Notes: generated by a model from the letters alone, not told the origin. A DNA stretch of 64,000 bases from an uncultured Candidatus Rokubacteria bacterium (GCA_963841755.1 CAWJDX010000011.1:412604-476603), one strand, 5' to 3'. Numbered from the stretch's first letter, positions 24,292-39,832 are shown. Numbers and translations are program-made.

Positions 24292-24389
24292 TCCTAAGGG
24301 CGCGAGTTGGGGCCCCCAGGGGGCCAAGAGGTGGAGCGGCGGTGGAAACGAAGTCAGGCATGAAAACGCAGTCAGAAAGGACGAATTCA

Positions 24390-26367: not shown

Positions 26368-27119
26368 GCGGCGTTACCGGTCGCGCCCGGCCCGAAGATC
26401 CGCGCGGTGGCCGCCCGGTCCAGCGAGGCGGGCGGCCCGTCGTGGACCACCCGGCCCTGATGGAGCCCGATGATGCGCTGCCCGTACGCCTGCGCCAGCT
26501 CCAGCACGTGGAGCGAGGTGATGACCGTGATGCCGTCTTCCTGGTTGATCCGGCGCAGCAGCTCCATCACGGTGTGGGCCAGTGCGGGGTCGAGGCTCGC
26601 CATCGGCTCGTCGGCCAGGATGACCGCGGGTCCCTGGACCAGGGCGCGGGCGATCGCCACCCGCTGCTGCTGTCCGCCCGAGAGCGTGTCGATGCGGCGG
26701 GTGGCGAGACCGACGAGGCCCACCCGGCCGAGGGTCGCCTCGGCGCGCGCCAGGTCGGCCGGCTCGAACCACCCGATCAGGGAGCGCCATCGGCTGGTGA
26801 GGGCGAGCCGGCCCAGCACGGTGTTCTCGAGCACGCTCAGGCGGCGCAGCAGGTTGAACTGCTGGAACACGAACCCGACTCGCGTGCGGACCCGGCGAAG
26901 GGCCTCCGGGGTGGCCCCGGTCACCGCGACGCCGTCCACCTCGACCTGCCCCGCGGTGGGCGTGACGAGGCCGTTCAGGCACCGGAGGAGCGTGGACTTC
27001 CCCGCCCCGCTCGGGCCGATCAGGGCCACGAACTCTCCCCGCCCGATGTCGAGGTCGATCCCGTCCAGCGCGGGCGAGCCGCCGGAATACTCCTTGCGGA
27101 GCCCTCGGACGCGGATCAC
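26364..27119 (-). CDS. phnC: Phosphonate ABC transporter ATP-binding protein.
   Basis: It is the C-terminal 251 aa of ORF 26364..27482, from the GTG at 27117-27119: VIRVRGLRKEYSGGSPALDGIDLDIGRGEFVALIGPSGAGKSTLLR...LSGGQQQRVAIARAL...ILADEP. The start overlaps the HIT stop (GTGA). Confidence 0.75.
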   Translation of the reverse strand: MIRVRGLRKEYSGGSPALDGIDLDIGRGEFVALIGPSGAGKSTLLRCLNGLVTPTAGQVEVDGVAVTGATPEALRRVRTRVGFVFQQFNLLRRLSVLENTVLGRLALTSRWRSLIGWFEPADLARAEATLGRVGLVGLATRRIDTLSGGQQQRVAIARALVQGPAVILADEPMASLDPALAHTVMELLRRINQEDGITVITSLHVLELAQAYGQRIIGLHQGRVVHDGPPASLDRAATARIFGPGATGNAA

Positions 27120-27445
27120 CGGCGGCCGGCGGTGAAGTGAAAATGGATGTGGTCGACGACCTGCCCGCCCTCGGGCCCGGTATTGCAGGACAGGCGGTAT
27201 CCCCGCTCCGCGTAGCCGGCCCGCTCGCCGAGGAGACGGGCCACGTGGATGCACCGTCCGATCAGCGGAGCGTCGCCCGGCTCGAGGCGCGCGATGGACT
27301 CGATGTGGCGCCGGGGAATGATCAGGAAGTGGATCGGCGCCTTCGGGTAGAGGTCGCGGAACGCCACGACCTCGTCGTCCTCGTACTCGATCTCGGCCGG
27401 GCTCTCCTTGGCCGCGATGCGACAGAAGAGGCAGGGTTGGGTCAC
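27116..27445 (-). CDS. HIT-family (histidine triad) nucleotide hydrolase.
   Basis: ORF 27116..27445 with the CLFCRI zinc-binding start and the HIHFH triad. A GGGAGGAG SD lies before the GTG. Confidence 0.8.
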   Translation of the reverse strand: MTQPCLFCRIAAKESPAEIEYEDDEVVAFRDLYPKAPIHFLIIPRRHIESIARLEPGDAPLIGRCIHVARLLGERAGYAERGYRLSCNTGPEGGQVVDHIHFHFTAGRR

Positions 27446-27459
27446 GGCTCCTCCCGCTC

Positions 27460-27468
27460 GTGTATAAT
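27460..27468 (+). promoter_or_regulatory. Candidate extended -10 promoter (TGTATAAT) for the small zinc-ribbon ORF.
   Basis: A perfect TGnTATAAT sits 48 nt upstream of the ATG at 27516, in a 70-bp divergent intergenic region. Confidence 0.35.
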
Positions 27469-27515
27469 GCTCGACGCGTCACATCCTGTCAGTAATTCCG
27501 TTGGAGGAGAATGAC

Positions 27516-27638
27516 ATGGGGACCTGCCCCAAGTGCAAGCTTCGTATCCGGAAGAACGGTAATCACGTCAAGCTGGGATCGGTCTGGGTCCACAAGATGT
27601 GCCCACCGAAGCCCGGCGTGTCGACCAAGCGCGCCTAG
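27516..27638 (+). CDS. Small (40-aa) zinc-ribbon-like protein.
   Basis: MGTCPKCKLRIRKNGNHVKLGSVWVHKMCPPKPGVSTKRA (CxxC...C). GGAGGAG lies 6 nt upstream. Its stop converges on the methyltransferase stop. It is below the ORF-track length threshold. Confidence 0.4.
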   Translation: MGTCPKCKLRIRKNGNHVKLGSVWVHKMCPPKPGVSTKRA

Positions 27639-28360
27639 CTCGTCCCGCCTCCACCCTCCCGCCGTAGCGTCATCAGCAGCAGCATCGGCCACCCGACGTA
27701 GCGCGCGCCGCGCGGGTGCGCCGCCGCGAGGGCGACGTCGACCGCGTGCTCGCTCAGATGGTCGGTGACGAGTCCCGCCGACCGCGCGGCCGTCGTGTAG
27801 TCGCTCACCTGGTACGGAAAGCTCGCCGGCTGGATCGGCGCTCCCGTTCGCGCATCGTGGAAGCGCGCCTGCACCCCGCGCAGCATCATGGCCGGATGCA
27901 TGGCCGACACCACGATGAGGCCTCGGGGCGCGGGCGCGCAGACGCGGGCGAGCTCGCCGAAGAAGGAGGCCAGGTTCGCCACGTGCTCCAGCACCAGGCA
28001 GCAGAGCACGCGGTCGGCCGCGCCGTCGTCGAGCGGAAGCCGGGTGGTCACGTCGTGGAGGAGGAAGCGCACGCGCTCGGCGCCGGCCTTGGCCCGCGCG
28101 ATCTCGAGCATGCGCGGCGAGAAATCGAGCGCGGTGACCCGGGCGCCGGCGGCCGCGAGCCGCACCGCGTGCCGGCCGGTGCCGCAGCCGACGTCGACCA
28201 CCGCCAGCCTGTCGACCGCTCCCAGGAGAGGGTTGAGGTGGCGCTCCTCGAGCGCGATGAGCGGGTTGCCGTCGGTGTCGTAGACCTCGGCCCACCGATC
28301 GTAGCCTTCTCGCGTTGGCACCAGTCGGGGTGCGTCGGCGTCGAAATCCGGGTCGGTCAT
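27635..28360 (-). CDS. Class I SAM-dependent methyltransferase.
   Basis: ORF 27635..28609 trimmed to the ATG at 28358-28360 (MTDPDFDADAPRLVP...). It carries motif I (VVDVGCGTG) and motif II/post-I (ALDFSPRML, RVLCCLVLEH). Confidence 0.75.
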   Translation of the reverse strand: MTDPDFDADAPRLVPTREGYDRWAEVYDTDGNPLIALEERHLNPLLGAVDRLAVVDVGCGTGRHAVRLAAAGARVTALDFSPRMLEIARAKAGAERVRFLLHDVTTRLPLDDGAADRVLCCLVLEHVANLASFFGELARVCAPAPRGLIVVSAMHPAMMLRGVQARFHDARTGAPIQPASFPYQVSDYTTAARSAGLVTDHLSEHAVDVALAAAHPRGARYVGWPMLLLMTLRREGGGGTS

Positions 28361-28411
28361 CGCCGCGCCCGCCTTTGCCCCGATACCGCGGGAGAGGGCC
28401 GAAACCCCAAC

Positions 28412-28486
28412 CTCAAGACCGCCAAGGTCCTGCGCTTGACGATCCCCCCGTCCCTCCTCGCGAGGGCCGACAACGTCATCGAGTGA
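28412..28486 (+). pseudogene. Orphan 3' remnant of a PF04392-type ABC substrate-binding protein gene.
   Basis: It translates to ...NLKTAKVLRLTIPPSLLARADNVIE*. This matches the conserved C-termini of the two intact island paralogs (NLKTAKALGLTIPPSLLQRADQVIE). Nothing upstream is homologous. Confidence 0.5.
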
Positions 28487-28608
28487 TCGGAGGGTGCCGC
28501 GAGGGCTCGTCAAGGTGGGTGACCCTCCCTCGAACGCGGCAGCAGTGCGGGTGCCGCAGCCGCATCGAGAGAGGGCCCATCTACGCCGGCTTCGACGACC
28601 GACCGGCA

Positions 28609-28626
28609 AATGGTGGAGGGTAAGGG
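28609..28626 (+). repeat. Left direct repeat (attL-like) of the tRNA-Ala-associated island.
   Basis: ATGGTGGAGGGTAAGGGA is identical to 39756..39773, which is the 3' end of tRNA-Ala. The left copy is embedded in an imperfect palindrome (ggtggagg...cctccacc). Confidence 0.6.
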
Positions 28627-28805
28627 AGCCTCTCCCTCCTCCACCGCCATCCTCGGAAGTGCGCGTCGTACCTGATCAGCACGCTACCGCTGTCCTTTCG
28701 CAATGAGTTGCGACCGGCGATGGTGTTCCTCTTCCATCGCGTGGCGTGCCCTTCACGCGATACCAACGAGACCAATGGGAAGGAGACCGAACTAGCTGCC
28801 TGACC

Positions 28806-29162
28806 TTACGCGCGGGCGTAGTTGCTCGCCCCGAACCAGTCGACGACCACGACGGGTTCATTGCCGACGACCCACGCGTCGTGGCCGGAGGGCAACGCGG
28901 TCACGTCGCCGGGAAGGGCGTCGAACTCCGAGCCGTCGGACATGACGATGTGCAACGTGCCCGACACGTGGTACTGGAAGTGGGGTGCTTCGCACCAGGC
29001 CGTTTTCGCGATCGGCTTCACGTGCTCCGACCACTTCCACCCGGGCTGGAGCGTGAGCTTCCCCACCACGCCGCCGCCGATGTTGACCAGTTCCGCCTTC
29101 CCCTTTGGGAACTCTTGAACTTGGTCCGGTTTGCCGAACAGCTTGTGCTCCGCAGATGCCAT
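28806..29162 (-). CDS. Cupin-domain protein.
   Basis: Intact 118-aa ORF (MASAEHKLFGKP...HFQYHVSGTLHIVMSDGSEF...). Its GC and codon usage look lower than in the core genes. Confidence 0.75.
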   Translation of the reverse strand: MASAEHKLFGKPDQVQEFPKGKAELVNIGGGVVGKLTLQPGWKWSEHVKPIAKTAWCEAPHFQYHVSGTLHIVMSDGSEFDALPGDVTALPSGHDAWVVGNEPVVVVDWFGASNYARA

Positions 29163-29358
29163 AGCACTCTCCTTGTCTTGTCGAGTCCTCGTTCGTCGAT
29201 AGCGCGATTCTATGCAGTGCGAATCGCCCTCGTCAACCGTTCAGCGCCCCGTACGGGACTACGAGTCCTGCGGTGTACTTAGGTCTTGCCCCGCCAGCTA
29301 CACTGGAAGTGTGAGACCGCCGACCCGCACCGCTCCCGCTCCCGTCACCGTCGTTGCC

Positions 29359-29601
29359 ATGCAGCCCACCATAGTGGCCCGCCCGTTCCACGTCGAGGGG
29401 TTCGTCTACGAGGAGAATGTTAACGGCTACCGCATAGTGGCCTACAAGCAGGGGAGAGGCGGGGAGGAGGAGGGAGTCATGAGCGCCGATAACCGGCGGA
29501 TCGACGGTTCCAACGACGACTTCGCCCTGCTACGCCGACTCTTGGCCGAGGCCGTCGAAGAGGGTCGGCTCCGAGGGTACAGGGCAAGGCACGCCTCCTG
29601 A
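29359..29601 (+). pseudogene. Remnant of a LigD-like ligase N-terminus. Only about 30 aa of homology remain, followed by an unrelated tail.
   Basis: MQPTIVARPFHVEGFVYEENVNGYRIVAYKQG is paralogous to the N-termini at 36954 (AQPFHRDGWVYEEKYGGWRMVAYKDG) and 32979 (VPRPFHTKRWVYEEKYDPWRMLAVKEAG). Confidence 0.45.
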
Positions 29602-29624
29602 GGCAGGGGCAGTAAACTGAAGGC

Positions 29625-29990
29625 ATGGCCCGGGTGCTGATCGTGGACGACGAGCCGGTCATGCGTGAGTTGATCGAGGTAACGTTGGAGGACGCCGGCC
29701 ACGCCGTCGAGAGCGTCGCGAGCGGCCGCGCCGCGCTGGAGCGACTCGCGCAGCACGCCTATGACCTGATCGTGTGTGATCTGCACATGCCGGATCGGGA
29801 CGGGCCGGCTGTCTACCGCGCGATCGAGCGGCGGTCGTCACCCCGGCCGGCGTTCCTGTTCATCACGGGCTACGCCGAAGGCGGCCCCTACGAGGAGTTC
29901 ATCAGGGCCACGCGGTCGCCGGTCATGACCAAGCCGTTCGTCATCGACGTCCTGCGGGAGACGGTAAGCCGGCTGCTCGGCGGATCATAA
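29625..29990 (+). CDS. Stand-alone response-regulator receiver domain (CheY-like).
   Basis: Intact 121-aa ORF with the DD, D54-equivalent (IVCDLHMPDRDG), T and K (MTKPF) positions. A GAAGG SD precedes it. No cognate kinase lies nearby. Confidence 0.8.
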   Translation: MARVLIVDDEPVMRELIEVTLEDAGHAVESVASGRAALERLAQHAYDLIVCDLHMPDRDGPAVYRAIERRSSPRPAFLFITGYAEGGPYEEFIRATRSPVMTKPFVIDVLRETVSRLLGGS

Positions 29991-30059
29991 CGCGATAGCC
30001 CTGGTCGGGAGACTGGAAAGAGATCGTGTCCTCCGTCACCTCCCCTTCGCGCGCCTCCC

Positions 30060-30203
30060 CTACCACCGCCGCCCAACCCACTCCAGGATGTCGGGTGACT
30101 CGTCCCGAGTCACCAGGTCTCCGTCGAGGTGCTTCAGGATCTCGACCTTGGCGCGCTGGGGATCCCGCCGCAGCAATCCATCCAGCGGTTCCAGTTTGTT
30201 CAT
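30060..30203 (-). CDS. Small hypothetical protein (47 aa).
   Basis: MNKLEPLDGLLRRDPQRAKVEILKHLDGDLVTRDESPDILEWVGRRW, starting at the internal ATG of ORF 30060..30275. There is no homology call. Confidence 0.25.
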   Translation of the reverse strand: MNKLEPLDGLLRRDPQRAKVEILKHLDGDLVTRDESPDILEWVGRRW

Positions 30204-30428
30204 GACCCAAGCGGGGTGGACCCGGGCCGGCCGGACGGGCCGAGGCCTTCTCGATGGGCGCCCACTCAGCCGCATCCACGCCGAGACGAGGCCCGGGCCC
30301 GCATCTGCTCCTCGGAGGCTTCAGCCCCATCTGACTGGCGTATCCAGGGCAAGAGCTGCAACATACGTGCGCTGTTCCAGCGGCCGAGTTGACCTGGACA
30401 CTATGCGGGCGGAGCAAGGAGAACACGT

Positions 30429-31688
30429 ATGAGTGAAGCGTTGGGTGGGCTCCTCCTCGGCGTCGTGATCCTCTTGGCCTTGGTCGTGTGGTCGATCCGC
30501 CGCCATAGAGACCCTGACCTGCACGTCGAGTGCGACTCGCCTATCGACGAGCTGATGCCCACGCTCTCGGGCTTGACGCTGGGCACGGCGGTGGCCGGCA
30601 ACAAGGTGGAGGTGCATGAGAACGGTGCCTTCTTCGATGTATTGATCGGCCGCATCCAGGCGGCGAGAAACTCCGTGCACTTCGAGACCTTCTTGTGGAA
30701 GGAGGGCGCGCTCGGCCGGCGTGTGGCCGACGCGCTGATCGAGCGAGCGAGAGCGGGCGTGAAGGTTCGCCTACTGCTAGACGCAGAAGGCTCGAAGCAC
30801 GCGGGCAAGGCCGTCGTGCAGGAGATGCGCGACGCGGGCTGCCGCGTGGTGTTCTTTCACGAGCGGAGGCTGCGAAACATCGGAGTATTCAACGACCGCG
30901 ACCATCGTAAGCTGATGGTGATCGACGGGCGCGAGGCCTTTGTGGGCGGTCATTGCGTCGTGGACCAGTGGCTGGGCAATGCGGAAGACGGAAAGCACTA
31001 CGGCGACATCAGCCTGCACCTCCATGGGCCGATCGTGCACAGCGTGCAAGGCGCCTTCAGTGAGAACTGGGCTGGCGAGACCGGCGAGCTGTTCGTGGGC
31101 GAAGACGTGTTCCCGGTGCTGGAACCGGCGGGCGAGGTCTTGATGCACGCCGTGTTCGCTAAACCCGAGAACTCGGCGCCCGCGGTGAAGATACTCCACC
31201 ACACCGCCATCTGCCTGGCGCGCGCGCGCATCTGGATCCAGAACCCCTATTTCATCCCCGAGCCAGATGCCATCGACGCCTTCGGTGATGCGGTGAAGCG
31301 CGGCGTGGACGTGCGGGTGCTGATGCCGTCGACCAGCGGATCGGACAACCCCATGGTGCAGCACGCCGGCCACCGCAACTTCGAGAAGCTGTTGAGGTGC
31401 GGCGTTCGCCTGTTCGAATACCCGCACACCCTGCTGCACCAGAAGGTCATGACTGTCGACGGAGTCTGGAGCGCCGTTGGCTCGAGCAACTTCGACGACC
31501 GCTCGTTCGAGACAAACGACGAGATCACCCTGTCGATCAGGGACGAGGCGCTCGCGCAGCGCCTCGACGCGGTCTTCGAGAAGTACGTCCCGCGCGCGAC
31601 AGAGGTGCAACTCGAGCGGTGGCGCAAGCGCCGGCTGACGCACAAGCTGAAGGATAACTTCTTCTATCTGCTGAACGAGCTGCTCTGA
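30429..31688 (+). CDS. cls: Cardiolipin synthase / phospholipase D family protein with two HKD motifs and an N-terminal transmembrane helix.
   Basis: Intact 419-aa ORF. The HKD motifs are HRKLMVIDGREAFVGG and HQKVMTVDGVWSAVGSSNFD. Confidence 0.85.
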   Translation: MSEALGGLLLGVVILLALVVWSIRRHRDPDLHVECDSPIDELMPTLSGLTLGTAVAGNKVEVHENGAFFDVLIGRIQAARNSVHFETFLWKEGALGRRVADALIERARAGVKVRLLLDAEGSKHAGKAVVQEMRDAGCRVVFFHERRLRNIGVFNDRDHRKLMVIDGREAFVGGHCVVDQWLGNAEDGKHYGDISLHLHGPIVHSVQGAFSENWAGETGELFVGEDVFPVLEPAGEVLMHAVFAKPENSAPAVKILHHTAICLARARIWIQNPYFIPEPDAIDAFGDAVKRGVDVRVLMPSTSGSDNPMVQHAGHRNFEKLLRCGVRLFEYPHTLLHQKVMTVDGVWSAVGSSNFDDRSFETNDEITLSIRDEALAQRLDAVFEKYVPRATEVQLERWRKRRLTHKLKDNFFYLLNELL

Positions 31689-31940
31689 CAGACAGATCGG
31701 GCCCCGCCTCCGCTGCTGCAGCGGGCTCGATGCCCTTCGCTGGTGAACCGGGCCTCGACCTCGGTGAGAAGCTCGGTGACACCGGGCAGCTCGATGGCCC
31801 CACCGAGATGGCGAGGTAGACAACTGTGTCTGGGCGGTCCTGGGACAACTGCCGCAACTGGACCAGCGGGTCGACCTTACCTCGGCTCCGCGCCGTCGGT
31901 CGAGGCGAGATGACGCGTCTCTCGTCGCCCTTTCTGCGCG

Positions 31941-32675
31941 CTATCCGCCAGCCGCCTTCCGGCGCGCGGCCAGGCCCACGCCGACCATGGCGGCGCCGAG
32001 CAGGGTCAGGGTGGCGGGCTCAGGCACCGGTGAGGTGGCGCTGGCACTGGCGAAGCCGTCGACGGAGTCGGTGAGCAGCAGGCTGTGGAGGCCGGGCGTC
32101 AGGTTGAGCGTGAGCGGCACCGTCCCCCCGTCGGTGATGGTCTCGAAGGGGGGCGCGATCGCCACGTCCTCGTTCAGTTTGACCTTCACGCTGCCGTCCA
32201 GGAGCACCGAGTAGCTGAAGCCGGCCGCCGCAAACTCGTTGGCTCCGGCCGAGGCCACCACGGTCGCGCTCCAGCCGATCGTGATCGGGAACGCGACCGA
32301 GAAGTTGTTGTCGTTCAGGATGGCTCCCGTGGTGGTCGCACTGGCCATCGACATCGCAAGGGACGTGGGTGGTGCGCTCGCCGAGCCCGACACGAACACT
32401 TGGATCACCCCGGGAACCACTGGAGACCCGCTGCGGCTGGCAACGGCGTCGCCGATCTGCAGCACGGGCCCCAGCGTCACCACCCCTTGGGAGAGCGTGA
32501 TCCCAGTGCCGGGCGGCAGCGCGTCCGGCGCGCTGACCGACAGGGTGACGTCTCCGCTATAGATCGCGACGGCGGCCGCGGGCACCGGAGCGATCAAGGC
32601 ACTGCCGGCGAAGACCGCCGCGATCAATAGGACGCGGAGCGGGATGGCAGTCGAAGGGCGGCCGAGTCTGCTCAT
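31941..32675 (-). CDS. PEP-CTERM sorting-domain protein (putative exosortase substrate).
   Basis: Intact 244-aa ORF with a signal peptide and the C-terminal VPEPATLTLLGAAMVGVGLAARRK motif. An AGGAGG SD precedes it. Confidence 0.8.
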   Translation of the reverse strand: MSRLGRPSTAIPLRVLLIAAVFAGSALIAPVPAAAVAIYSGDVTLSVSAPDALPPGTGITLSQGVVTLGPVLQIGDAVASRSGSPVVPGVIQVFVSGSASAPPTSLAMSMASATTTGAILNDNNFSVAFPITIGWSATVVASAGANEFAAAGFSYSVLLDGSVKVKLNEDVAIAPPFETITDGGTVPLTLNLTPGLHSLLLTDSVDGFASASATSPVPEPATLTLLGAAMVGVGLAARRKAAGG

Positions 32676-32978
32676 GGCGTACCTCCTGCTCTCGCATGGC
32701 GAGCGGCACTGCGAAGAATTTCTAGGCAGGACGGAGATTGGGTCATGGCATCTCCAAGTCCGATGGATCCCAGGCCAATGAGTCAGTGACGGGAACCAAC
32801 CCGACCCTATGCGCCTCGGTCCGCAACGTCAAGGGCCGGTGCGCCGTTCGCCCGTCGCGTCCGAGGTGACCGCTCCGGAGGTCGCGGGTCCGGCTAGGCG
32901 GCGACCTCCCGGGGCAGGTACTCACCACGAGAACCCCCGCAATTCCTAATTATCGGTATCGCGTAGATTCGTTCCTCC

Positions 32979-33355
32979 ATGGAGCCGCCCGACCTCATGC
33001 ACGCCACGCAAGTCCCGCGCCCGTTTCACACGAAGAGATGGGTCTATGAAGAGAAGTACGACCCGTGGCGAATGCTCGCGGTCAAGGAAGCTGGTGGCGT
33101 GCGGCTCGTCAGCCGGAACGGCCGGGACCACACCAAGCGCTTTCGCGCGATAGCCGAAGCACTCGCGGCACTCAAGCCCAAGACCCTCACCCTCGACGGT
33201 GTAGTGGCGGTGTTCGACGCCGAGCTAGTTTCCCGCTTCGAGTGGCTCCGTAGGACCCGGAGTCACCTTACGTGGCCGGGCGCACCCTCAAGTGGCTCAA
33301 GGTGAAGCAACCCGAGTACCGACTAGAGAAACGCGGTTGGGCATGAGGGAATAGC
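32979..33355 (+). pseudogene. LigD-like ATP-dependent ligase paralog with an internal deletion (about 330 nt missing relative to the 36361..36954 copy) and a frame change.
   Basis: The N-terminal part MEPPDLMHATQVPRPFHTKRWVYEEKYDPWRMLAVKEAGGVRLVSRNGRDHTKRF...SRFEWLRR is followed, in another frame, by PYVAGRTLKWLKVKQPEYRLEKRGWA*. This corresponds to the extreme C-terminus (SPYLGGRSLSWLKVRQRDYRVEERGW) of the intact copy. Confidence 0.55.
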
Positions 33356-33375
33356 CCCTCCGGCAGAGTCAGTAA

Positions 33376-33540
33376 TCAGACGCTCGGGCCGCCTGGCGGC
33401 GAGGGCATGTGGTGGTCGTGCTTGCGTCGTTCTTGCTCAAACTCGTGAGGCTGGGGCGCCATTGTCCGCCGCCTGCTAATGAGATAGGCGAGTGCAGCGA
33501 CTCCACTTACTACTAGAATCACGAATACCGCGAGCCACAT
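33376..33540 (-). CDS. Small hypothetical membrane protein (54 aa).
   Basis: MWLAVFVILVVSGVAALAYLISRRRTMAPQPHEFEQERRKHDHHMPSPPGGPSV, with a GGGAGGGG SD upstream. It is below the ORF-track threshold. Confidence 0.3.
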   Translation of the reverse strand: MWLAVFVILVVSGVAALAYLISRRRTMAPQPHEFEQERRKHDHHMPSPPGGPSV

Positions 33541-34052
33541 CTCGACCCCTCCCACTCACTATGCAGCCACCCGGGCAAAGTATGGCACAGGCTAGCCCCC
33601 AGGAGCGACGAGCACCGTGGGAGAGTGCGGCGTTAAACAACTGGCCGCATTCCTAACCTTGGGCCAAGGACGCTACCAGAACACTGCTAGACCGGGCAAG
33701 CCCTTGGCGCTACGCTTCCTCTACCGGGTGCTACGGCCGCGCCCGGCTTCGCCCGAAGGGGATGAGCCGCCCTCTTGAGGCTGCCACTTCGGGCTCTAGC
33801 TCGCCAACCAGCCGCCGCGAGCGCGGATTGTAACTGCCAAGTCGGCCGCACCAGCGGCACAGACAACGTAGTAGGTTCGCGTGCATCTGGGTGGTCACGA
33901 TTCAACCAGTCTACCGGATGGTGGACGCCGCGCTGACCCCGCCGTAATGATCCTTGACTACGTACGCGCGATGGTGTTGACTCACGGCCTCACTCGTCTA
34001 GTGGCGTGTCCCTATACTAGATGGTCTATCGCACCGCCGGGAGGAGAACCTA

Positions 34053-34418
34053 ATGAGTCAATCTGAGATCGCGGCCGTGAATCGTATGTTTGAGGAAGCA
34101 GCGAGCAAAGGGGACCTTGATACCCTCGCCTCGCTGTACACCAAGGACGCCGTAGCCCTTCCACCGGACGGGCCGTTTGTCAGGGGCCGAGACAATATAA
34201 AGCAGATGTGGGCGGCCATTGCTCAGCAAATCGGGCTGAAGAGCGTGAAGCTCGAGACGGTCGATCTCGAGGTGGCCGGCGAGATGGCACATGAGGTCGG
34301 TGAGGCACAACTAACTCTTGGATCCGGTACTGCGGTTGCGAAGTATGTCGTGGTCTGGAAAAAGACGGATGGGCAATGGCGTTTGCATCGGGACATCTGG
34401 AACACGAAGGCCACATAG
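34053..34418 (+). CDS. SnoaL-like / NTF2-fold (DUF4440-like) protein.
   Basis: Intact 121-aa ORF with a GGAGGAG SD and noticeably lower GC. Confidence 0.75.
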   Translation: MSQSEIAAVNRMFEEAASKGDLDTLASLYTKDAVALPPDGPFVRGRDNIKQMWAAIAQQIGLKSVKLETVDLEVAGEMAHEVGEAQLTLGSGTAVAKYVVVWKKTDGQWRLHRDIWNTKAT

Positions 34419-34924
34419 CGGCGCGAACTCGTCTCCGGAGTTCCGGGAGGCGGCGGAGCGGCCGGTGGCGTTCCAGGCCTGGGCGTCTCAGCAGCAGTTG
34501 TAGGCCGCGTCGCAGCAGACTGGGCGGATCCTCGATATCGCTGCGCTTCGTCGTCCCGATGGACAGGGACGTGCAGTGCCGCCCTAGCGGATCATAGAGG
34601 TCCAGGCCACCCATCGCTGTAGAGTCTCGTTCCGAAAACCCCTCCCTGCCGCCCCGAAAGTGCGCACCGAGTCAGAGCTCCGCCCCCCGTGAAGTCCCGT
34701 GCCGAAATCAGGTGATTCCGGGACAGCCAGACCGTACCTCTCGGTCTAGCCGGGTGGCGTCGCTCCGGGAACGGCGTCATGGTCCCCGCGCCATGATCTC
34801 GTCCCGGATGGCCTGACGAGCAGGGTCGCCCGATCCCCGCCTACCCCTGCCCGCGCTGCGGTCTCGTCTCGCAGTCAAAGGTTTCTCTCGAGAGAACCCC
34901 AGCTCATAGTGCTGCTTGGCTTGA

Positions 34925-36187
34925 TCAACCTTGGCTGTCGTCGATACGCCTCCGGCCGCGGGTCAACCCCAATCCCGCCATTATGGTCCCGAGAAGCAGT
35001 AGCGTCGTCGGCTCAGGGACGGGAGCGTCCGGGACGTCCGCAATAAGTGGCGTCATCGTGCCCGTGAAGTCTCCGTCGCCGACGAAAGTGAGCCCAGTGA
35101 TGAATGCGGTGACGTTGTTCGGATCGAGCCCCGCCGACGTCTCGATGCCGGTCACGTCGAAAGCACTGACACCGCCCTGTGGGAAAAAGAACTGAGTATT
35201 CGCAGCAATCTGCTGAAGGATGGTGTTTTGGCCCAGCAGAAAGGACAGCAGGAACAGATTGTCGCCCACTGACGGAAGCGTTACCGAGGCAAAAGTCGGG
35301 TTGCCGGTGCCGGTCGCGTATTTGTAGCCAATCGCGACGGCGGGGTCGATGAAGATCGTTTGTCCTCCCTTGATCCCTTGAACTTGGAACTGATACGGCG
35401 CATTGATCCCGGGACCCCGCGTGGGAATGAACGCGGCTGGCTGCGGTCCCGAGAGCGGCGAGAAATCGAAGAACGAATTCGACCGGCTGAGGATGCTGGA
35501 ATTGGGAAGGCTCCCGCCGGGAGACGGCGTTACGTGGTTCCGAGAGTCGATCAACTGCACATTAAGGACATATTGTCCGTTCGACTTCAGAACACCAGCG
35601 GGAACTTGAAAGCTCGATTGGGCGCCGGTGAGATTTGCGGAAAAGATAATATCGTTCTGTCCATTCGAAAGGACGATGCTCTTGTCGTAGACTTGCACAC
35701 GGACTGCATCCGGATTGAAGCCACCTGGGACCGTCCAACTGAGGGTCGGCGTCGTGCCCGAGTTGGAAATCGTTACGCTCGCTGGAAAGGGTATCGGGTC
35801 CGTTGGAATCCCCGCCAAGCTGGGGGTCAAGGCGGTTGCTGTATCGGCCCCGTTCTGAAACGTGAGCGCCCAGGAACCGAGCCGGCTCGGATTGAAAGCC
35901 GGACCGCGAGCGCAGAAGTTCGGGTCCACCGCCAGTGGCACGCACGGGGTAGCGGCCAGCGTTATGCCCTGCACCGCAGCGATAGTCGTCCCAAGAGCAG
36001 GCACAACGTCCGCACCAAATTGGTTGACATCACCTGACGCGATGCCAACGTCGTTCGCGCCGCGGAAATCGCGAAAGTTGTTCAGGTTGGTGATGTTCGT
36101 GATCGGCGCGCCGTGCGCGGTGGGGAGATCAGTAGAGATCAGAAGGGCGATGGCGGTGAGGACGGCGCCGAAAGCTCGAAGGATCAT
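34925..36187 (-). CDS. PEP-CTERM sorting-domain protein (second copy, unrelated in its body).
   Basis: Intact 420-aa ORF with a signal peptide, a Ser/Thr/Asn/Gly-rich body and the C-terminal VPEPTTLLLLGTIMAGLGLTRGRRR motif. Its GC is lower. Confidence 0.8.
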   Translation of the reverse strand: MILRAFGAVLTAIALLISTDLPTAHGAPITNITNLNNFRDFRGANDVGIASGDVNQFGADVVPALGTTIAAVQGITLAATPCVPLAVDPNFCARGPAFNPSRLGSWALTFQNGADTATALTPSLAGIPTDPIPFPASVTISNSGTTPTLSWTVPGGFNPDAVRVQVYDKSIVLSNGQNDIIFSANLTGAQSSFQVPAGVLKSNGQYVLNVQLIDSRNHVTPSPGGSLPNSSILSRSNSFFDFSPLSGPQPAAFIPTRGPGINAPYQFQVQGIKGGQTIFIDPAVAIGYKYATGTGNPTFASVTLPSVGDNLFLLSFLLGQNTILQQIAANTQFFFPQGGVSAFDVTGIETSAGLDPNNVTAFITGLTFVGDGDFTGTMTPLIADVPDAPVPEPTTLLLLGTIMAGLGLTRGRRRIDDSQG

Positions 36188-36360
36188 GGGATACCTCCCT
36201 GAGCGGACGGTCGGACGCAGGCAGACTACCGCAGCATCCTCGGCTGAACCAAGAGCTTTCGATCCCAGCAGGTGTGCTTACTGTGTACGTCCCTGCCGTA
36301 GCTTCCGAGATGGCCTCGCGGGCCACCCGCAGGAGCAGGTGACGAGCCGACGCGGACGGT

Positions 36361-36954
36361 CTATGCCCTGTTCCTCGGGTCCCACCCGCGCTCCTCCACC
36401 CGGTAGTCCCGCTGCCGGACCTTGAGCCACGAAAGCGACCGCCCACCGAGATACGGTGAGGATTCATCCTTGCCGACCATGCCCTCGTAGCCGCGCTCGA
36501 GCACCTGCTGCCATGCCTTGAGCCCTTTGTCGGCCAGCCGCCGCGCCGGGAACAGCAGTGTGTGGTCGTTCTCCAGGAGCCGTTCGAGCTCTGCCCGTCG
36601 CTCTCGTAGCGGCAGCGGCCGCAGGTCGCGCCGATCCAGGTACAGGCAGTCAAAGGCTATGTAGACCGGCGGGGTCGAGGCGGCATCCTCCGGACGCTTG
36701 CGGAACCACTCGAACCGCGAGATCAGCTGCTCGTCGAAGATCGCCACTTCCCCGTCGAGGATCAGGGTCAGGACCGGAAGGGCGCGGATCGCGGCGGCCA
36801 GCTCCGCGAACCGCCGCGCGTGGTCCTTGCCGGCCCGGCTGATCAGCCGGACGTGGGTGCCGTCCTTGTAAGCGACCATGCGCCAGCCACCGTACTTCTC
36901 CTCGTACACCCAGCCGTCGCGGTGAAACGGCTGGGCGACTTCGGTGGACTGCAT
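36361..36954 (-). CDS. ATP-dependent DNA ligase family protein (LigD-like). It has only the NTase domain and its motif I is degenerate.
   Basis: The 197-aa ORF starts at the internal ATG at 36952-36954. It has motif III (LDGEVAIFDE), motif IIIa (YIAFDCLYLDRRDLRPLPLRERR), motif IV (EGMVGKDESSPY) and motif V (WLKVRQ). Motif I reads EEKYGGWR rather than KxDGxR. There is no OB domain. Confidence 0.7.
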   Translation of the reverse strand: MQSTEVAQPFHRDGWVYEEKYGGWRMVAYKDGTHVRLISRAGKDHARRFAELAAAIRALPVLTLILDGEVAIFDEQLISRFEWFRKRPEDAASTPPVYIAFDCLYLDRRDLRPLPLRERRAELERLLENDHTLLFPARRLADKGLKAWQQVLERGYEGMVGKDESSPYLGGRSLSWLKVRQRDYRVEERGWDPRNRA

Positions 36955-37155
36955 GGGGTCAACCTTGGGGAGGTTGGTCACCCTTCCAGTGTACGGGCCG
37001 GGGGAACCCGGGCCGGCTTGGCGGGATGCACGATGCTGGCCCGCAGTCGCAGGTGATCCACACGCGATCCGGCTCGACGGCGGCGTCCAGATCGCCACAG
37101 CGGCGATGCTCCTGGAGGAAGGCGTCGAGGGTGGCGAGCAGCTCGGGCATCGGGA

Positions 37156-38148
37156 CTACTCGATCACCTGGTCCGCCCGCTGGAGGAGCGACGGCGGGAT
37201 CGTCAGGCCGAGCGCCTTGGCGGTCTTGAGGTTGATGACCAGCTCGAACTTCGTGGGCTGCTCGATCGGGAGGTCTCCGGGGCTCGTCCCCTTCAGGATC
37301 TTATCGACGTAGGTTCCGGCCCGCCGGTTCAAATCGGGAATGCTCGCTCCATAGGCGACGAGGCCACCAAGCTCGACAAACTCCGTTGCATTGAACATCG
37401 AGGGTAGGCGGTGGCTCGCGGCGAGTCCGACGAGACGGCGTCGCTCATAGTAGAACATCGGGCTGGGAAAGGTGACGAGGGCACCGGCATGCTCCTTGGT
37501 CATCGTAGAGAATGCACGGTCCAACTCGTCGGAGGTCCGCACCCCGACAGGAATAAGCTGTACTTTCAGTGCCTGCGCGACCGCGCCAGTTTCCTTGAAC
37601 ATCTCGCGAGTTGTGGGTTCGCCGAAGGCGCCCGGATGCCAGAGGGTAGCGACCCGAGACGCTCTGGGAACTACCTCCTTCAGAAGTTCGAGACGCTTGG
37701 GGACTAGCCCCGGGCCGAGGAACGTAGACCCCGTGATGTTTCCCCCGGGCCGCGCGAGGCTGGCAACGAACCCGTCCCCTACTGGATCACCCAACGCGGG
37801 TGCAACGATGGGGATCGTCGTGGTCGCTTGCCGAACCGCCCGGGCGACAGGGGTACTCGCGGCGACGATGACATCGACTTTGAGGCGGACGAGTTCAGTG
37901 GCCAAATCTGGTAGCCTCTCCAGTCTTCCTTCCGCTGCCCGGTACTCGATGATGATGTTCTGCCCCTCCACGTAGCCATGTTCCCGAAGTCCTCGACGAA
38001 GGTCATCAGGACGCGAGTCACGTGATTCAAATGAACCGGCTATCAGGTAACCGATCCGTGGAGGTTTCGCACCCGTCTGTGCCTTGGCGGTAAACGGCAC
38101 CGCCACGAGCCCGCCTGCCACGGTCCCGATGAAGCCCCGCCTGTCCAC
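37156..38148 (-). CDS. ABC transporter substrate-binding protein (PF04392 family) with a twin-arginine signal.
   Basis: Intact 330-aa ORF with an MDRRGFIG Tat motif and the conserved C-terminus LTIPPSLLQRADQVIE. Confidence 0.8.
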   Translation of the reverse strand: MDRRGFIGTVAGGLVAVPFTAKAQTGAKPPRIGYLIAGSFESRDSRPDDLRRGLREHGYVEGQNIIIEYRAAEGRLERLPDLATELVRLKVDVIVAASTPVARAVRQATTTIPIVAPALGDPVGDGFVASLARPGGNITGSTFLGPGLVPKRLELLKEVVPRASRVATLWHPGAFGEPTTREMFKETGAVAQALKVQLIPVGVRTSDELDRAFSTMTKEHAGALVTFPSPMFYYERRRLVGLAASHRLPSMFNATEFVELGGLVAYGASIPDLNRRAGTYVDKILKGTSPGDLPIEQPTKFELVINLKTAKALGLTIPPSLLQRADQVIE

Positions 38149-39122
38149 TACTCGATCACCTGATCCGCCCGCTGGAGGAGCGACGGCGGGATCGTCAAGC
38201 CGAGGGCCTGGGCGGTCTTGAGGTTGATGACGAGTTGGAACGTGGTCACCTGTCGGATAGGTACCTCGCTGACCGGCGTCCCCCGAAGAATCGTGTCGAC
38301 GGTCTCAGCGAGCAAGCGGTAAAGCTCGCGGAGGTCGTAGCCGTAAGAGAGGAGGCCGCCGAGTGGGGCGAAGTCCGAGAGCTCGCAGATCGTGGGGATT
38401 CGATGCTTCAAGGCAAGGTCCGCCACTGTCTTTCGGTGGAGGCCCACAAGGCGGCTGCGCAATACCAGGACCCCTTGAGCGCGTCCGGCTCGAAGCGCCA
38501 AGAATGCCGGGTCAAGATCCTCGACGCGAAGAACTGGCTCGATCCGGAGGCGGATACCCAACGCCTTCCCACTCGTTTCGGCTACTCGGACAGCCGCGCT
38601 GACCTCAGATCCTCCCTTGAGGACGCCTGCCCGAGAGAGACCTGGGATGGCCTCTTTCATGAGGGCCAACTGCTTGCCAACAACCTCGGGCATCAGGGTC
38701 TGGGTTCCGGTGACGTTGCCGCCAGGTCTGGCGACGCTGGCCGCGAGCCCGCTCTCCACGAGATCTTCCGCTTCAGACACGACGATCGGGATCGTTCGGG
38801 TCACCTTCTGCAGGAGCTTGGCATGGAGGTCACCTGAGACGACGAACATATCCACGCGCGATCGCAGAAACTCGGCGGCCAGGTCGGGAATGCGCTCGGG
38901 CTGATCACCATAGGTTCGGCGTTCGACAACGAAGTGCTGCCCGTAGACCCAACCAAGCAGTCGCATCCGGTCGTACCATTGCCCCTCGCCCGGTGGGGTG
39001 CTCGGTAACCCGGCAAGGAATGATCCAATCCGGTACACCTTCCCAACCTGCTGCGCCTCGACGGCGAGCGGCGCGGCGAGGAGGCTGCCGGCCAAGGTGC
39101 CGATGAATGCACGTCGGTCCAC
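38148..39122 (-). CDS. ABC transporter substrate-binding protein (PF04392 family), a tandem paralog with a twin-arginine signal.
   Basis: Intact 324-aa ORF with MDRRAFIG and the same C-terminal motif. Its stop and the downstream start overlap by 1 nt. Confidence 0.8.
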   Translation of the reverse strand: MDRRAFIGTLAGSLLAAPLAVEAQQVGKVYRIGSFLAGLPSTPPGEGQWYDRMRLLGWVYGQHFVVERRTYGDQPERIPDLAAEFLRSRVDMFVVSGDLHAKLLQKVTRTIPIVVSEAEDLVESGLAASVARPGGNVTGTQTLMPEVVGKQLALMKEAIPGLSRAGVLKGGSEVSAAVRVAETSGKALGIRLRIEPVLRVEDLDPAFLALRAGRAQGVLVLRSRLVGLHRKTVADLALKHRIPTICELSDFAPLGGLLSYGYDLRELYRLLAETVDTILRGTPVSEVPIRQVTTFQLVINLKTAQALGLTIPPSLLQRADQVIE

Positions 39123-39755
39123 TACGAAGCCCTCACTTGGCCGCGTCGTTTAGGAGGGACAGGGCGGGGCGGCCAGCGGCACGACCTTACACCAAGAGGC
39201 CGAGAGAGAGCAGCCTAGTAGTAGTCTCGCATCCGGCCAACCTGCTGGTGCAGGCGTTTGCGACGCCAAAGATAGGTGTTCCGATTGTGTAATGCCCTGT
39301 GCCTAGACGCCATAACTACTATGTCGATAGATGCCTCGTGCCCGCACGGACCGTCAACGTTGGCAGGAGGAAGTAGCAGAGCTGCCCGAACAGATCGATC
39401 GCTGGCAATCCGAGTTGACAACGCTCTCCCCCGGTGACCGCGTGCGGCGGGAGATGCTGGAGTGGACAATCCCGGCGGCTCGGCTGCGGAGGAGACGGTG
39501 GCAAAGTGGATCGAGCAGGCGGACACCGAATCGACCTAGCCGCACCACCCCGTGCGCCGGGTGCGGTGTTGTCGGGCCTCCGTGAGGCAGGCGGGCCGGC
39601 ATGCGGGTCTCAGTCTACGGGTCCCAACCCACGAGGGCCGAGTGAGCCTAGATGCGGTGCTGGCCGGCGTCCACTCACGTCCACCGGCGTCCACGCTATC
39701 CGACGCCGATGGGGTGAGGGCAGGTCAACTACGCGATTTTCCGCGTGAGGAATTC

Positions 39756-39773
39756 ATGGTGGAGGGTAAGGGA
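39756..39773 (+). repeat. Right direct repeat (attR-like), which is the 3' terminal 17 nt of tRNA-Ala plus 1 nt.
   Basis: It is identical to 28609..28626. Confidence 0.6.
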
Positions 39774-39832
39774 TTCGAACCCTCGACCTCGGCGTTGCGA
39801 ACGCCGCGCTCTCCCAACTGAGCTAACCCCCC
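39757..39832 (-). tRNA. tRNA-Ala (anticodon CGC), with an encoded CCA.
   Basis: The minus strand reads GGGGGGTTAGCTCAGTTGGGAGAGCGCGGCGTTCGCAACGCCGAGGTCGAGGGTTCGAATCCCTTACCCTCCACCA. The cloverleaf folds, the anticodon loop is TTCGCAA, and the G3:U70 alanine identity pair is present. Confidence 0.9.

Follow-up and report, generated by a model that had tools for sequence, protein, structure and literature searches.

A probable decayed, composite genomic island at the tRNA-Ala(CGC) gene of a soil Rokubacteria chromosome

Gene content and composition of the locus

The window, a stretch of DNA of 64,000 nucleotides analysed here as a whole, derives from a soil Rokubacteria (Methylomirabilota) chromosome; both the organism and a conserved NfeD-SPFH-tRNA-Ala synteny were drawn from 80 genomes (Rokubacteria/Methylomirabilota contigs). 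A single tRNA, tRNA-Ala(CGC), was found by ARAGORN and Rfam, and adjoins an 11.1-kb block that ends at a second copy of the tRNA 3′ end (Table 1). Genes in the block lie on both strands, as the earlier note had described, and the cargo list given there mostly stands on Pfam and NCBIfam matches, with the exception of a 'cupin', for which the match is weak (E 0.0078) and below the Pfam cut-off. The PF07589 match of the second PEP-CTERM protein (34925..36187) is likewise weak (E 0.0031, below cut-off). Both NHEJ-ligase-domain genes are truncated; the TIGR02779 match of the longer is limited to positions 4-186 of 302, and the two products align locally over 88 residues (BLOSUM62 score 266). The tandem PF04392 substrate-binding proteins share 139 identical positions in a 330-column alignment, and their genes have GC3 values of 0.72-0.75.

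Table 1. Features at and around the tRNA-Ala(CGC) gene, in window coordinates
Feature	Position	Strand	Remarks
Variable segment outside repeat	27635..28487	-	methyltransferase gene and PF04392 remnant
Class I methyltransferase gene	27635..28360	-	boundaries as called in L172
PF04392 gene 3′ remnant	28408..28487	-	79 nt
Strong hairpin	28521..28577	-	in sequence after distal repeat
Distal direct repeat	28610..28627		displaced copy of tRNA 3′ end, same orientation as tRNA
Imperfect palindrome	28612..28645		spans distal repeat and adjacent island-side sequence
Island block	28628..39755
Shared left part of island	28806..32675		97-99% identity with L172 and other strains (L172-L181)
118-aa protein	28806..29162	-
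Small ORF	29212..29601	+
Receiver domain protein	29625..29990	+	Pfam/NCBIfam
PLD/cardiolipin-synthase-like protein	30429..31688	+	Pfam/NCBIfam
PEP-CTERM protein	31941..32675	-	Pfam/NCBIfam
Second ligase-domain gene fragment	32979..33305	+	108 aa; PF01068 4.6e-9, profile positions 16-98 of 204
Segment missing in conspecific contig L172/L186	32992..39756		~200 bp with 52-aa DUF6538 ORF in its place
DUF4440/SnoaL-like protein	34053..34418	+	PF14534 2.2e-16; TIGR02246 7e-12; 56.8% GC
PEP-CTERM protein	34925..36187	-	TIGR02595 8.6e-5; lowest-GC gene block, 59.5% GC
Truncated NHEJ-type ATP-dependent DNA ligase domain gene	36361..37098	-	PF01068 2.4e-28
PF04392 ABC substrate-binding-protein genes, tandem pair	38148..39122 and 37156..38148	-	Pfam 1.8e-32 and 5.3e-50
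Gene-free stretch	39123..39626		~500 bp; six-frame Pfam scan empty, no Rfam match
Tyrosine integrase remnant	39627..39668	+	last 14 codons (THEGRVSLDAVLAG)
Attachment-site arm	39630..39755	-	126 nt, adjoining tRNA
Three GTGGACG repeats	39668..39694	-	exact 10-bp spacing
Proximal direct repeat	39756..39773		tRNA 3′ terminal 17 nt + 1 nt
tRNA-Ala(CGC)	39757..39832	-	intact, CCA encoded; ARAGORN and Rfam RF00005, 67.8 bits

The block differs in composition from its flanks, as had been claimed from the sequence, and the GC content is 64.0% for the island against 71.9% and 71.4% for the left and right flanks, respectively. One-kb windows inside the island have a mean GC of 0.640 (0.594-0.687), those outside a mean of 0.718 (sd 0.026), with one alone below 0.66; blocks within the island range from 0.57 to 0.70. 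GC3 is 0.66-0.89 in island genes and 0.92-0.98 in core flank genes.

A six-frame scan revealed no Pfam domain in any frame of the island gaps; 39123..39190 resembles the region upstream of the substrate-binding-protein gene in the L192 element, one of the relatives' elements at this tRNA (81% identity over 39048..39190). Phage structural, packaging, replication and lysis genes were sought among the island proteins and gap translations and none was found, so a phage origin of the island is not shown. The island was not found elsewhere as one unit, and many unrelated contexts contain the PLD gene by itself, its module elsewhere being 93-95% identical; part of the content may thus have come by other routes. 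An integron or gene-cassette array was considered because single-gene modules recur elsewhere, and was rejected on strand and integrase content, the genes being on both strands and an integrase gene absent.

The repeat pair and the two island ends

The 18-mer ATGGTGGAGGGTAAGGGA comprises the T-loop end, the 3′ strands of the T-stem and acceptor, the CCA and 1 further nt, and occurs in exactly two copies in the window, with no third copy even at ≤3 mismatches, no match in 100 shuffles, and identity extending past 18 nt on neither side. The direct repeats of the tRNA-Ala 3′ end noticed earlier are therefore confirmed, although the left copy, exact as reported, lies one base to the right of 28609..28626. 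Four other, unrelated exact direct repeats of at least 18 nt occur in this GC-rich window, so that an 18-mer repeat by itself is not rare; the improbable part is its coincidence with a tRNA 3′ end in the same orientation. The 3′ terminal 17 nt of tRNA-Ala are identical in 57 related loci, and the 17-mer is not a dispersed repeat: 57 of its 58 occurrences in 1.70 Mb of related loci are tRNA-Ala 3′ ends, and the remaining one is the boundary of another island. Homology between the window and nearly all relatives stops at the tRNA 3′ end (39755-39757), whilst homology to the conspecific contig L184 begins exactly at the distal repeat and runs outward. Both copies are thus homology breakpoints, which supports the proposed attL/attR-type ends of a tRNA-integrating element. 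The tRNA-Ala(CGC) gene is the integration target, its 3′ part re-supplied by the inserted DNA.

At the tRNA-proximal end, the arm is common to L187 (same species), L015, L016, L019, L021 and L064, with blastn identities of 72-79% over 94-126 nt; the L187 homology reaches 39630. Its GTGGACG repeats are the sole 10/10-spaced triple repeat in the window outside a tandem array, and analogous triples were found in 8/52 of the relatives' trailers, compared with 7/2000 random segments. They are putative arm-type integrase binding sites. The 14-codon remnant aligns with the integrase tails RHERRVDLDAVL of L187 and ERHERRVDLDGILG of L044; deletion has taken the rest of the gene, and the break lies near 39626-39630. 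By itself the remnant is not long enough to score, and the integrase identification therefore rests on alignment with the longer remnants. A tblastn search with the L044 integrase gave no match to the window at E<10, and no integrase gene lies within the 64 kb. The statement that the island has no integrase hence holds for an intact gene but not for traces; the tail and arm lie within 39123..39755, where integrase pseudogene traces had been suggested as worth seeking.

At the distal end, the imperfect palindrome noticed around the left repeat is real (GGTGGAGG..AGGGAG CCT CTCCCT..CCTCCACC; fold −36.9 kcal/mol, z −2.6), and probably reflects dyad symmetry at the former attachment site, copying the GAGGG strand of the tRNA T-stem. 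The distal repeat is exact in the window, and among five conspecific contigs it takes three different forms, each changed by a single base. The hairpin beyond the repeat (−56.5 kcal/mol, z −4.6) is interpreted as what originally lay downstream of the tRNA gene: in L184 the same trailer lies behind the second repeat copy, and the tRNA is followed by a trailer copy 77% identical to it. Further outward, the methyltransferase gene (GC3 0.85, intermediate) is absent in 80/80 genome loci from other species, and homology picks up again there at ~27640-27735. Both this gene and the adjoining substrate-binding-protein remnant are missing in the other species sampled and carried by conspecific strains, one of which (L173) has an intact PF04392 gene at the site of the 79-nt remnant.

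States of the tRNA site in related genomes

Strains with an identical SPFH protein present several other states of the tRNA site. In L184, which is one of these, a different 1.4-kb insert is followed by a second exact repeat copy and then by the distal flank of the window at 96% identity, whilst L187 has the same arm together with a 175-aa integrase fragment (PF00589, 2e-11). The DUF6538 ORF of the shorter L172 form adjoins the tRNA and reads away from it, whereas the integrase tail of the window reads towards the tRNA and has an unrelated trailer. The L172 fragment is probably the start of a different integrase, DUF6538 being a domain with which integrases presumably begin; one 498-aa homologue with a sub-threshold PF00589 match (E 9e-4) is in keeping with this. 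The ligase-fragment ORF persists in L172 as its first 13 nt (window 32979..32991). Contigs from six or more samples have the left part of the island at one and the same position. Conspecific L183 has neither the island nor the distal repeat; with 53 nt of the proximal arm still in place, it looks like a deletion scar. In the search for an empty tRNA-Ala site proposed earlier, conspecifics without all or part of the island were found, but the species yielded neither a precise absence of 28627..39755 nor a virgin attB.

The island is also absent in L002, L003 and L029, in the last of which just 59 bp separate the tRNA from the ABC operon region. Full-length integrase genes are present at this tRNA in L044, L038, L192 (PF00589 E-values of 7e-24, 1e-14 and 1e-5, respectively) and L166, further intact or fragmentary PF00589 integrases in L185 and L190, and remnants with PHROG integrase matches in L015 and L016. 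L166 is a prophage (terminase 1e-157, integrase 1e-52) that also has head protease and HNH endonuclease genes. L047 clearly holds a tandem array, its second repeat copy being followed by an integrase remnant. The arrangement of the window recurs independently in L047, L021, L064 and L184. Integrase genes or remnants adjoin the tRNA in most occupied states; in other species the slot holds unrelated genes (pilin, HtrA-like protease, Ku). Within the species of the window, tRNA-Ala(CGC) is an insertion hotspot, and a very busy one. It is also a frequent point of breaks in assemblies.

Origin of the island and relation to known systems

The homology breakpoints, the arm with its integrase tail, the intact integrases of the same family in relatives and the absences among strains support a decayed island integrated at the tRNA, and we assign a probability of roughly 0.85 to the reading of the block as a decayed, composite genomic island. 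The view of a fixed, decayed island in the earlier note is thus supported by comparative data and refined: the island is the relic of at least two integrations plus deletions, involving at least two integrase types. Truncation of the ligase genes, the empty gaps and the single-base drift of the distal repeat indicate decay, and the island is now probably immobile by itself.

In the general mechanism established for such elements, for which the island ends are also defined (PMC4383910), recombination by a tyrosine integrase would join a circular element to tRNA-Ala(CGC) at its 3′ end, with crossover within the 17-nt identity block between the end of the T-loop and the CCA. The element would supply a new tRNA 3′ end, such that the gene stays intact, and the original 3′ end would be moved to the far side with the old downstream hairpin still behind it. 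Accretion and decay at one tRNA are described (PMC5704250; 10.1101/2020.12.28.424599), and we infer the following order of events. An older element would have put an integrase gene, probably one starting with DUF6538, beside the tRNA and brought the genes that today make up the left side of the island; the regenerated tRNA would then have received a later element, of the L187/L021 type. Both integrase genes would have been lost by deletion, as would any inner repeat copy, of which none survives in the island, leaving the arm of the second element with its GTGGACG triple, 14 integrase codons and a fixed set of accessory genes. The boundary between these two presumed elements would fall somewhere within 32992..39626.

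Homologous recombination between strains may have built most of the content, with the tRNA/SPFH and ABC-operon sides as anchors and the repeat as an old scar. The many site states among strains with identical SPFH protein, the unrelated genes that fill the slot across species and the frequent assembly breaks all accord with such exchange, which we nevertheless consider unlikely as the main source: breakpoints fall exactly at the tRNA end and the distal repeat and not at variable flank points, and integrase genes or remnants sit beside the tRNA in most occupied states. Recombination is better seen as a supplement to integration than as a replacement for it.

It is rather doubtful that all 11.1 kb arrived in one integration and that the integrase alone was lost later. 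There is one repeat pair with no inner tRNA fragment, and the 13 nt of the ligase-fragment ORF in L172 make the shorter form a deletion derivative of something longer. However, the DUF6538 ORF and the integrase tail differ, with opposite reading directions and unrelated trailers, GC varies blockwise, and the PLD module is found alone elsewhere.

We regard as quite improbable an island still mobilisable in cis, with its own integrase lost and its ends usable, that would be excised or moved when another element supplies a related integrase. This concept is established for CIMEs (PMC5704250); both repeat copies are exact, the proximal arm retains its three repeats and integrases targeting this tRNA are common in the population. 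Nonetheless, the distal variants in the sister contigs suggest neutral drift over maintained function, the left part occupies the same place in at least six samples, and the proximal arm and distal end appear to derive from different elements, making them probably mismatched for any one integrase. The single-base drift likewise makes mobilisation in trans, the alternative raised in the earlier note, less likely. Furthermore, the search turned up no intact integrase with arms of the GTGGACG type, L187 providing only a fragment, and the window itself contains none. A chance repeat match in a low-GC block unrelated to the tRNA, for which the four other exact repeats might be cited, is effectively refuted by the shuffles, the coincidence with the tRNA 3′ end in the right orientation, the breakpoints at both copies, the adjoining integrase remnant and arm, and the independent recurrence of the arrangement.

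The composite island, as we read it, belongs to a kind of feature that is already well known, the busy hotspot role of this tRNA being the added finding. Islands formed in tRNA genes by tyrosine integrases are defined in the Islander database (PMC4383910; Williams 2002 cited there). As in those, an intact tRNA at one end and a displaced fragment of the same tRNA in the same orientation at the other (17 nt + 1, exact) mark the ends, with an identity block running from the T-loop/T-stem region to the 3′ end as in class J. The composition is unlike that of the host in both GC and GC3, relatives lack the content or have other DNA there, with breakpoints at the repeats (the distal one from L184), and the integrase position is beside the tRNA. 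In contrast to them, the island is composite and retains 14 integrase codons alone; as tblastn and six-frame Pfam searches found no integrase gene inside it, it would fail the integrase filter of Islander. Cryptic (defective) prophages also lie at tRNA genes, for example in E. coli K-12. The likeness to these consists in decay by deletion and in the use of the same tRNA by a temperate phage in a close relative (L166), but no phage structural or replication gene is left in the window.

CIMEs and accretion at one attachment site have been described for streptococcal ICEs and IMEs (PMC5704250). Here too there is evidence of successive integrations at one target. The integrase is lost and both core repeats are exact, and the flanking arms, which appear to derive from different elements, may or may not still form a working pair. 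Unlike in those systems, no conjugation genes were seen in the related elements, the two ends are probably of different origin, and the distal repeat is drifting among strains.

Parallels are also offered by the tycheposons of Prochlorococcus, which build flexible islands beside tRNA genes (10.1101/2020.12.28.424599). Common to both are one tRNA as hotspot, older elements displaced inward by newer ones, leftover partial tRNAs and broken integrases, uptake and envelope cargo, and strains of one species that differ at the site; the differences lie in phylum and habitat, in a replication module, none of which was seen here, and in one occupant (L166) that is a true prophage. We put forward, as a speculative extension, that tRNA-Ala(CGC) of soil Rokubacteria is a population-level exchange point at which related tyrosine integrases, each of which may have its own 10-bp-spaced triple arm repeat, deliver, stack and strip accessory genes, with integrase-less relics still moved in trans or by recombination between stacked repeats. 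If true, this would be a soil counterpart, in an uncultivated phylum, of the tycheposon system.

The repeat pair and the tRNA-Ala gene

The earlier note had read the block at 28628..39755 as a possible decayed island left by a tRNA-integrating element, and this reading is supported, with refinements, by the repeats, by an attachment-site arm carrying the tail of an integrase gene, and by the states of the site in relatives. Its tRNA-Ala(CGC), the single tRNA gene of the window, was confirmed by Rfam. The 18-bp direct repeats reported for this site are an exact pair at the tRNA end, although the left copy had been placed one base too low. The 18-mer, ATGGTGGAGGGTAAGGGA, occurs in two exact copies, with no further copy in the window at up to three mismatches, no match in 100 shuffles and no extension of the match beyond either edge. 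Read on the tRNA strand it is TCCCTTACCCTCCACCA followed by T, and takes in the final T-loop base, the 3′ strands of both the T-stem and the acceptor stem, and then the discriminator base with CCA. Four other exact repeats of 18 to 21 nt, unrelated and all in GC-rich coding sequence, exist in the window, so that repeat length alone is no argument; the case for the pair is its identity with the tRNA end together with its correct orientation. Nor is the 17-mer a dispersed repeat, a doubt raised with the original proposal, since 57 of its 58 occurrences in 1.70 Mb of related DNA are at tRNA-Ala 3′ ends and the remaining one is at the boundary of another island.

The distal repeat, exact in the window, shows three different single-base variants among five sister contigs, the pattern expected of a relic free of selection. 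The imperfect palindrome described at this repeat is present (z -2.6); the repeat pairs with island-side sequence copying the GAGGG strand of the T-stem, which probably reflects the dyad symmetry of the former attachment site. Outward of the distal repeat, the sequence starts TTTGCCGG and is predicted to form a strong hairpin (-56.5 kcal/mol, z -4.6). We take this trailer to be the original sequence downstream of the tRNA gene, as fits the integration model; in the same-species contig L184 the window's trailer comes after the repeat's second copy, and the tRNA is followed by a version of it with 77% identity.

The attachment-site arm and integrase traces

The 126 nt that adjoin the tRNA, here termed the arm, are 72-79% identical to the post-tRNA sequence of L015, L016, L019, L021 and L064, and contain three copies of GTGGACG at an exact 10-bp spacing, the sole 10/10-spaced triple repeat in the window outside the tandem array. 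By a strict criterion, such triple repeats lie 40-62 nt from the tRNA end in 8 of 52 relatives' trailers (7 of 2000 random 140-nt segments); the loci concerned (L006, L038, L042, L047, L052, L055, L058, L166) have one layout, with a motif that varies with locus or integrase type. By the known organisation of integrase attachment sites, these repeats are putative arm-type integrase binding sites.

Intact integrase genes adjoin tRNA-Ala in L044 (PF00589, 7e-24) and L038 (1e-14), and remnants of the same family are present in L015, L016, L021, L064, L030, L006 and L042. A plus-strand frame of the window, THEGRVSLDAVLAG, can be aligned with the ends of the L187 (RHERRVDLDAVL), L021 and L044 integrases. 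As the similarity stops upstream of approximately 39626 and the window holds no other integrase-like sequence, the integrase gene appears to have been deleted to its last 14 codons. The reported lack of an integrase therefore stands at the level of a gene, but this short tail survives: a six-frame Pfam scan of 39110..39760, 33290..34060, 34410..34935 and 29980..30440 found no integrase pseudogene, tblastn of the window with an intact relative's integrase gave no match, and PHROGs profiles did not recognise the remnant. The integrase frame is open past its expected stop and continues through the arm repeats into the opposite-strand tRNA gene, with equivalents in L015, L016, L021, L064 and L187; variable sites in this open-frame tail number 10, 10 and 18 by codon phase, of about 32 each.

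Composition and cargo of the island

The low GC content suspected for several genes extends to the 1-kb windows of the island (mean 0.640 versus 0.718 in the flanks), and the gene list drawn up from sequence was largely borne out, except that the cupin call is sub-threshold. An Rfam search of the gaps at E<=1 returned the tRNA as its sole match, with no other non-coding RNA; neither inner tRNA fragments nor additional arm-like triple repeats dividing the island were found in the window.

Features of the window (window positions) and states of the tRNA-Ala site in compared loci
Feature or locus	Coordinates	Observation
Gene with 24-bp tandem repeats	24342..25265 and beyond	long array at 24525..25500
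372-aa ORF, mechanically listed	26364..27482	
HIT-family gene	27116..27445	109 aa
Methyltransferase gene	27635..28360	just outside left repeat
PF04392 gene remnant	28408..28487	last 79 nt
Distal repeat	28610..28627	
Imperfect palindrome	28612..28645	
Stretch 5′ of PLD gene	30095..30216	122 bp
PLD gene with short flanks	30269..31739	
Smaller NHEJ-ligase-domain gene, truncated	32979..33305	108-aa fragment; 88 residues align with larger gene's product
Larger NHEJ-ligase-domain gene, truncated	36361..37098	profile positions 4-186 of 302 only
Open integrase frame	39552..39821 (+)	
Integrase tail	39627..39668 (+)	
Arm	39630..39755	
GTGGACG triple	39668..39694	
Proximal repeat	39756..39773	
tRNA-Ala(CGC)	39757..39832 (-)	Rfam, 67.8 bits
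Overall GC		island 64.0%; flanks 71.9% (left), 71.4% (right)
GC, 1-kb windows		island range 0.594-0.687; flanks sd 0.026, one window <0.66
GC3, genes		island 0.66-0.89; flanks 0.92-0.98
118-aa protein		cupin match, E 0.0078, sub-threshold
Small ORF		island
Stand-alone receiver domain		island
PLD-type cardiolipin-synthase-like protein		283.5 bits; cut-off 290
Two PEP-CTERM proteins		island
DUF4440/SnoaL-like protein		island
Two PF04392 substrate-binding proteins		island, tandem
L029		59 bp between tRNA and resumed homology
L002, L003, L007		pilin gene in interval
L004, L009-L011		HtrA-like protease in interval
L049		Ku in interval
Other loci		far longer inserts in interval
L183		island absent; 105 nt in place of window 28321..39702
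L184		different 1.4-kb insert, one 415-aa gene; second exact repeat copy, then window's distal flank (96% identity) from exactly 28627
L187		window's arm to 39630, then 175-aa integrase fragment (PF00589 2e-11; 71% identical to L044)
L185, L190		different arm; integrase genes of 295 and 240 aa
L192		492-aa integrase, HTH_17 excisionase-like gene, small ORFs, PF04392 gene
L188, L189, L191		contig terminates at or just past tRNA

Seven or more soil metagenome contigs (L081-L087) with unrelated neighbours also carry the PLD gene and its short flanks, at 93-95% nucleotide identity, the shared block ending sharply about 160 bp upstream and about 50 bp downstream of the gene; by this distribution, the gene appears to behave as a single-gene module, mobile by some route. 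In a metagenome scan with the PLD protein, none of 80 loci had another island gene adjoining at high identity; no second occurrence of the island as a whole was found. Exact-protein look-ups matched the receiver protein, the SnoaL-like protein and the 268-aa SPFH protein encoded beside the tRNA; they gave no match for the PLD protein, the second PEP-CTERM protein, both substrate-binding proteins or the ligase. The 122-bp stretch 5′ of the PLD gene is found in the window, L174 and L175 and is missing from L172 and L176-L178.

A Ku gene follows tRNA-Ala in L049 (14508..15392), and the island has two NHEJ-ligase-domain genes, both truncated; it seems that the tRNA-Ala slot is one in which end-joining genes travel. 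In the left flank, the 372-aa ORF is two genes according to the L172/L183 calls, encoding an ABC ATPase (251 aa) and the HIT-family protein. The gene that holds the 24-bp tandem repeats (8-residue units) also encodes a domain like the C-terminal trimerisation domain of phage T4 gp5; the array is kept beside the ABC operon in relatives, with varying copy number.

The tRNA-Ala site in relatives and a proposed history of the island

Scanning species-representative genomes with the neighbouring SPFH protein yielded 80 loci, nearly all from Candidatus Rokubacteria/Methylomirabilota, with protein identity up to 99%. Almost all keep the order NfeD-SPFH-tRNA-Ala(CGC); in most, nucleotide homology to the window ends at the tRNA 3′ end (39755-39757) and, where contigs are long enough, restarts at approximately 27640-27735, just upstream of the HIT/ABC-transporter genes. 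The methyltransferase gene is missing from all other species sampled, and the variable stretch thus slightly exceeds the repeat-bounded block; a 75% match of L003 to the 3′ end of this gene is weak and was discounted as evidence. Many contigs terminate at the tRNA. Assemblies of many samples stop at or just after it (L001, L012, L013, L026, L031, L036, L037, L046, L188, L189, L191), as strain heterogeneity at the site could explain.

PF04392 genes also adjoin tRNA-Ala in L045, L047, L058 and L192, the upstream region of the L192 gene matching window 39048..39190 at 81%. The IMG/VR contig L166, with an SPFH protein 98% identical, carries at tRNA-Ala genes for integrase (1e-52), large terminase (1e-157), head protease and HNH endonuclease. 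L047, which reads tRNA, arm, cargo, exact repeat copy, second arm with integrase remnant, third repeat copy and hairpin, is, as judged from this order, a clean independent example of stacking.

Within the species, contigs of Logan ERR5859547 are 99.9-100% identical to the window, and a look-up with the exact receiver protein retrieved L172 (12.3 kb; the same as L186), of 97-99% nucleotide identity. L172 and the window have in common the ABC genes, the HIT gene, the methyltransferase gene, the distal repeat, apart from one mismatch, and the island's left part up to and including the first PEP-CTERM gene. After window position 32991, L172 continues with about 200 bp containing a 52-aa DUF6538 ORF (8.8e-10), whose start is 79 bp from the tRNA and whose direction is away from that gene; since 13 nt from the beginning of the ligase-fragment ORF are kept, L172 is a deletion derivative of a longer form. 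We take DUF6538 to be the N-terminal domain of one integrase class; an exhaustive protein search gave the sole support obtained for this link, a 498-aa homologue whose PF00589 match is below threshold. A word-indexed protein search returned three short fragments only, and we found no paper mentioning DUF6538. Many database proteins starting with DUF6538 (P0013, P0039 and others) are either short or joined to an unrelated domain such as GerE or Lipocalin_5, a pattern that frequent read-through from truncated integrase starts into adjacent genes would predict.

Exact look-up of the identical 268-aa SPFH protein gave at least 10 contigs (L186 and nine further). The empty site sought among these strains has a counterpart in L183, which lacks the island but is ruled out as a virgin site: we read this contig, with 53 nt of the arm left in place and the distal repeat missing, as a deletion scar. 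In L184, approximately 90 nt of trailer is duplicated with the 17-mer (10948..11035 and 12373..12455; 77% identical) on either side of the 415-aa gene, which matches no Pfam family; the source of this insert may have been the tRNA-Ala locus of another genome rather than a classical element. L173 has an intact PF04392 gene (L173 805..1785) between the methyltransferase gene and the distal repeat, of which the window keeps the remnant.

In the proposed history, a tyrosine integrase would have joined a circular element to the 3′ end of tRNA-Ala, regenerating the tRNA and displacing its old 3′ end. Two different integrase traces occur in one species, a DUF6538-type start in L172 and an L187-type tail in the window; with the 13 nt of the ligase-fragment ORF kept in L172, they indicate that the window's lineage underwent two or more integrations, with later deletions presumably removing both integrase genes and any inner repeat. 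Mobilisation of the island in trans, which the earlier note had allowed, is possible in principle; against it stand the drift of the distal repeat among strains and the probable mismatch of the two island ends. Excision would be expected to leave the repaired site ...CCGACCGGCAA-ATGGTGGAGGGTAAGGGA-TTCGAACCC... and the circle ...GAGGAATTC-ATGGTGGAGGGTAAGGGA-GCCTCTCCC....

Taken alone, the decayed island is a routine tRNA island of a known kind, of descriptive value, which leaves general mobile-element biology unchanged; the hotspot behaviour of tRNA-Ala in Rokubacteria is the more noteworthy by-product. One tRNA gene of an uncultivated soil phylum is documented as a very active insertion site, where strains with an identical neighbouring protein display many states, a prophage among them, and where the gain and loss of accessory uptake, envelope and lipid genes is illustrated. 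For the mining of integrases of defined target, this set of related enzymes, which share one identical core but differ in their matched arm repeats, could be of use. In the standard account, tRNA islands are built by an integrase at the tRNA 3′ end (PMC4383910); the island of the window resembles the accretion and decay at one attachment site that have been described in other systems (PMC5704250; 10.1101/2020.12.28.424599).
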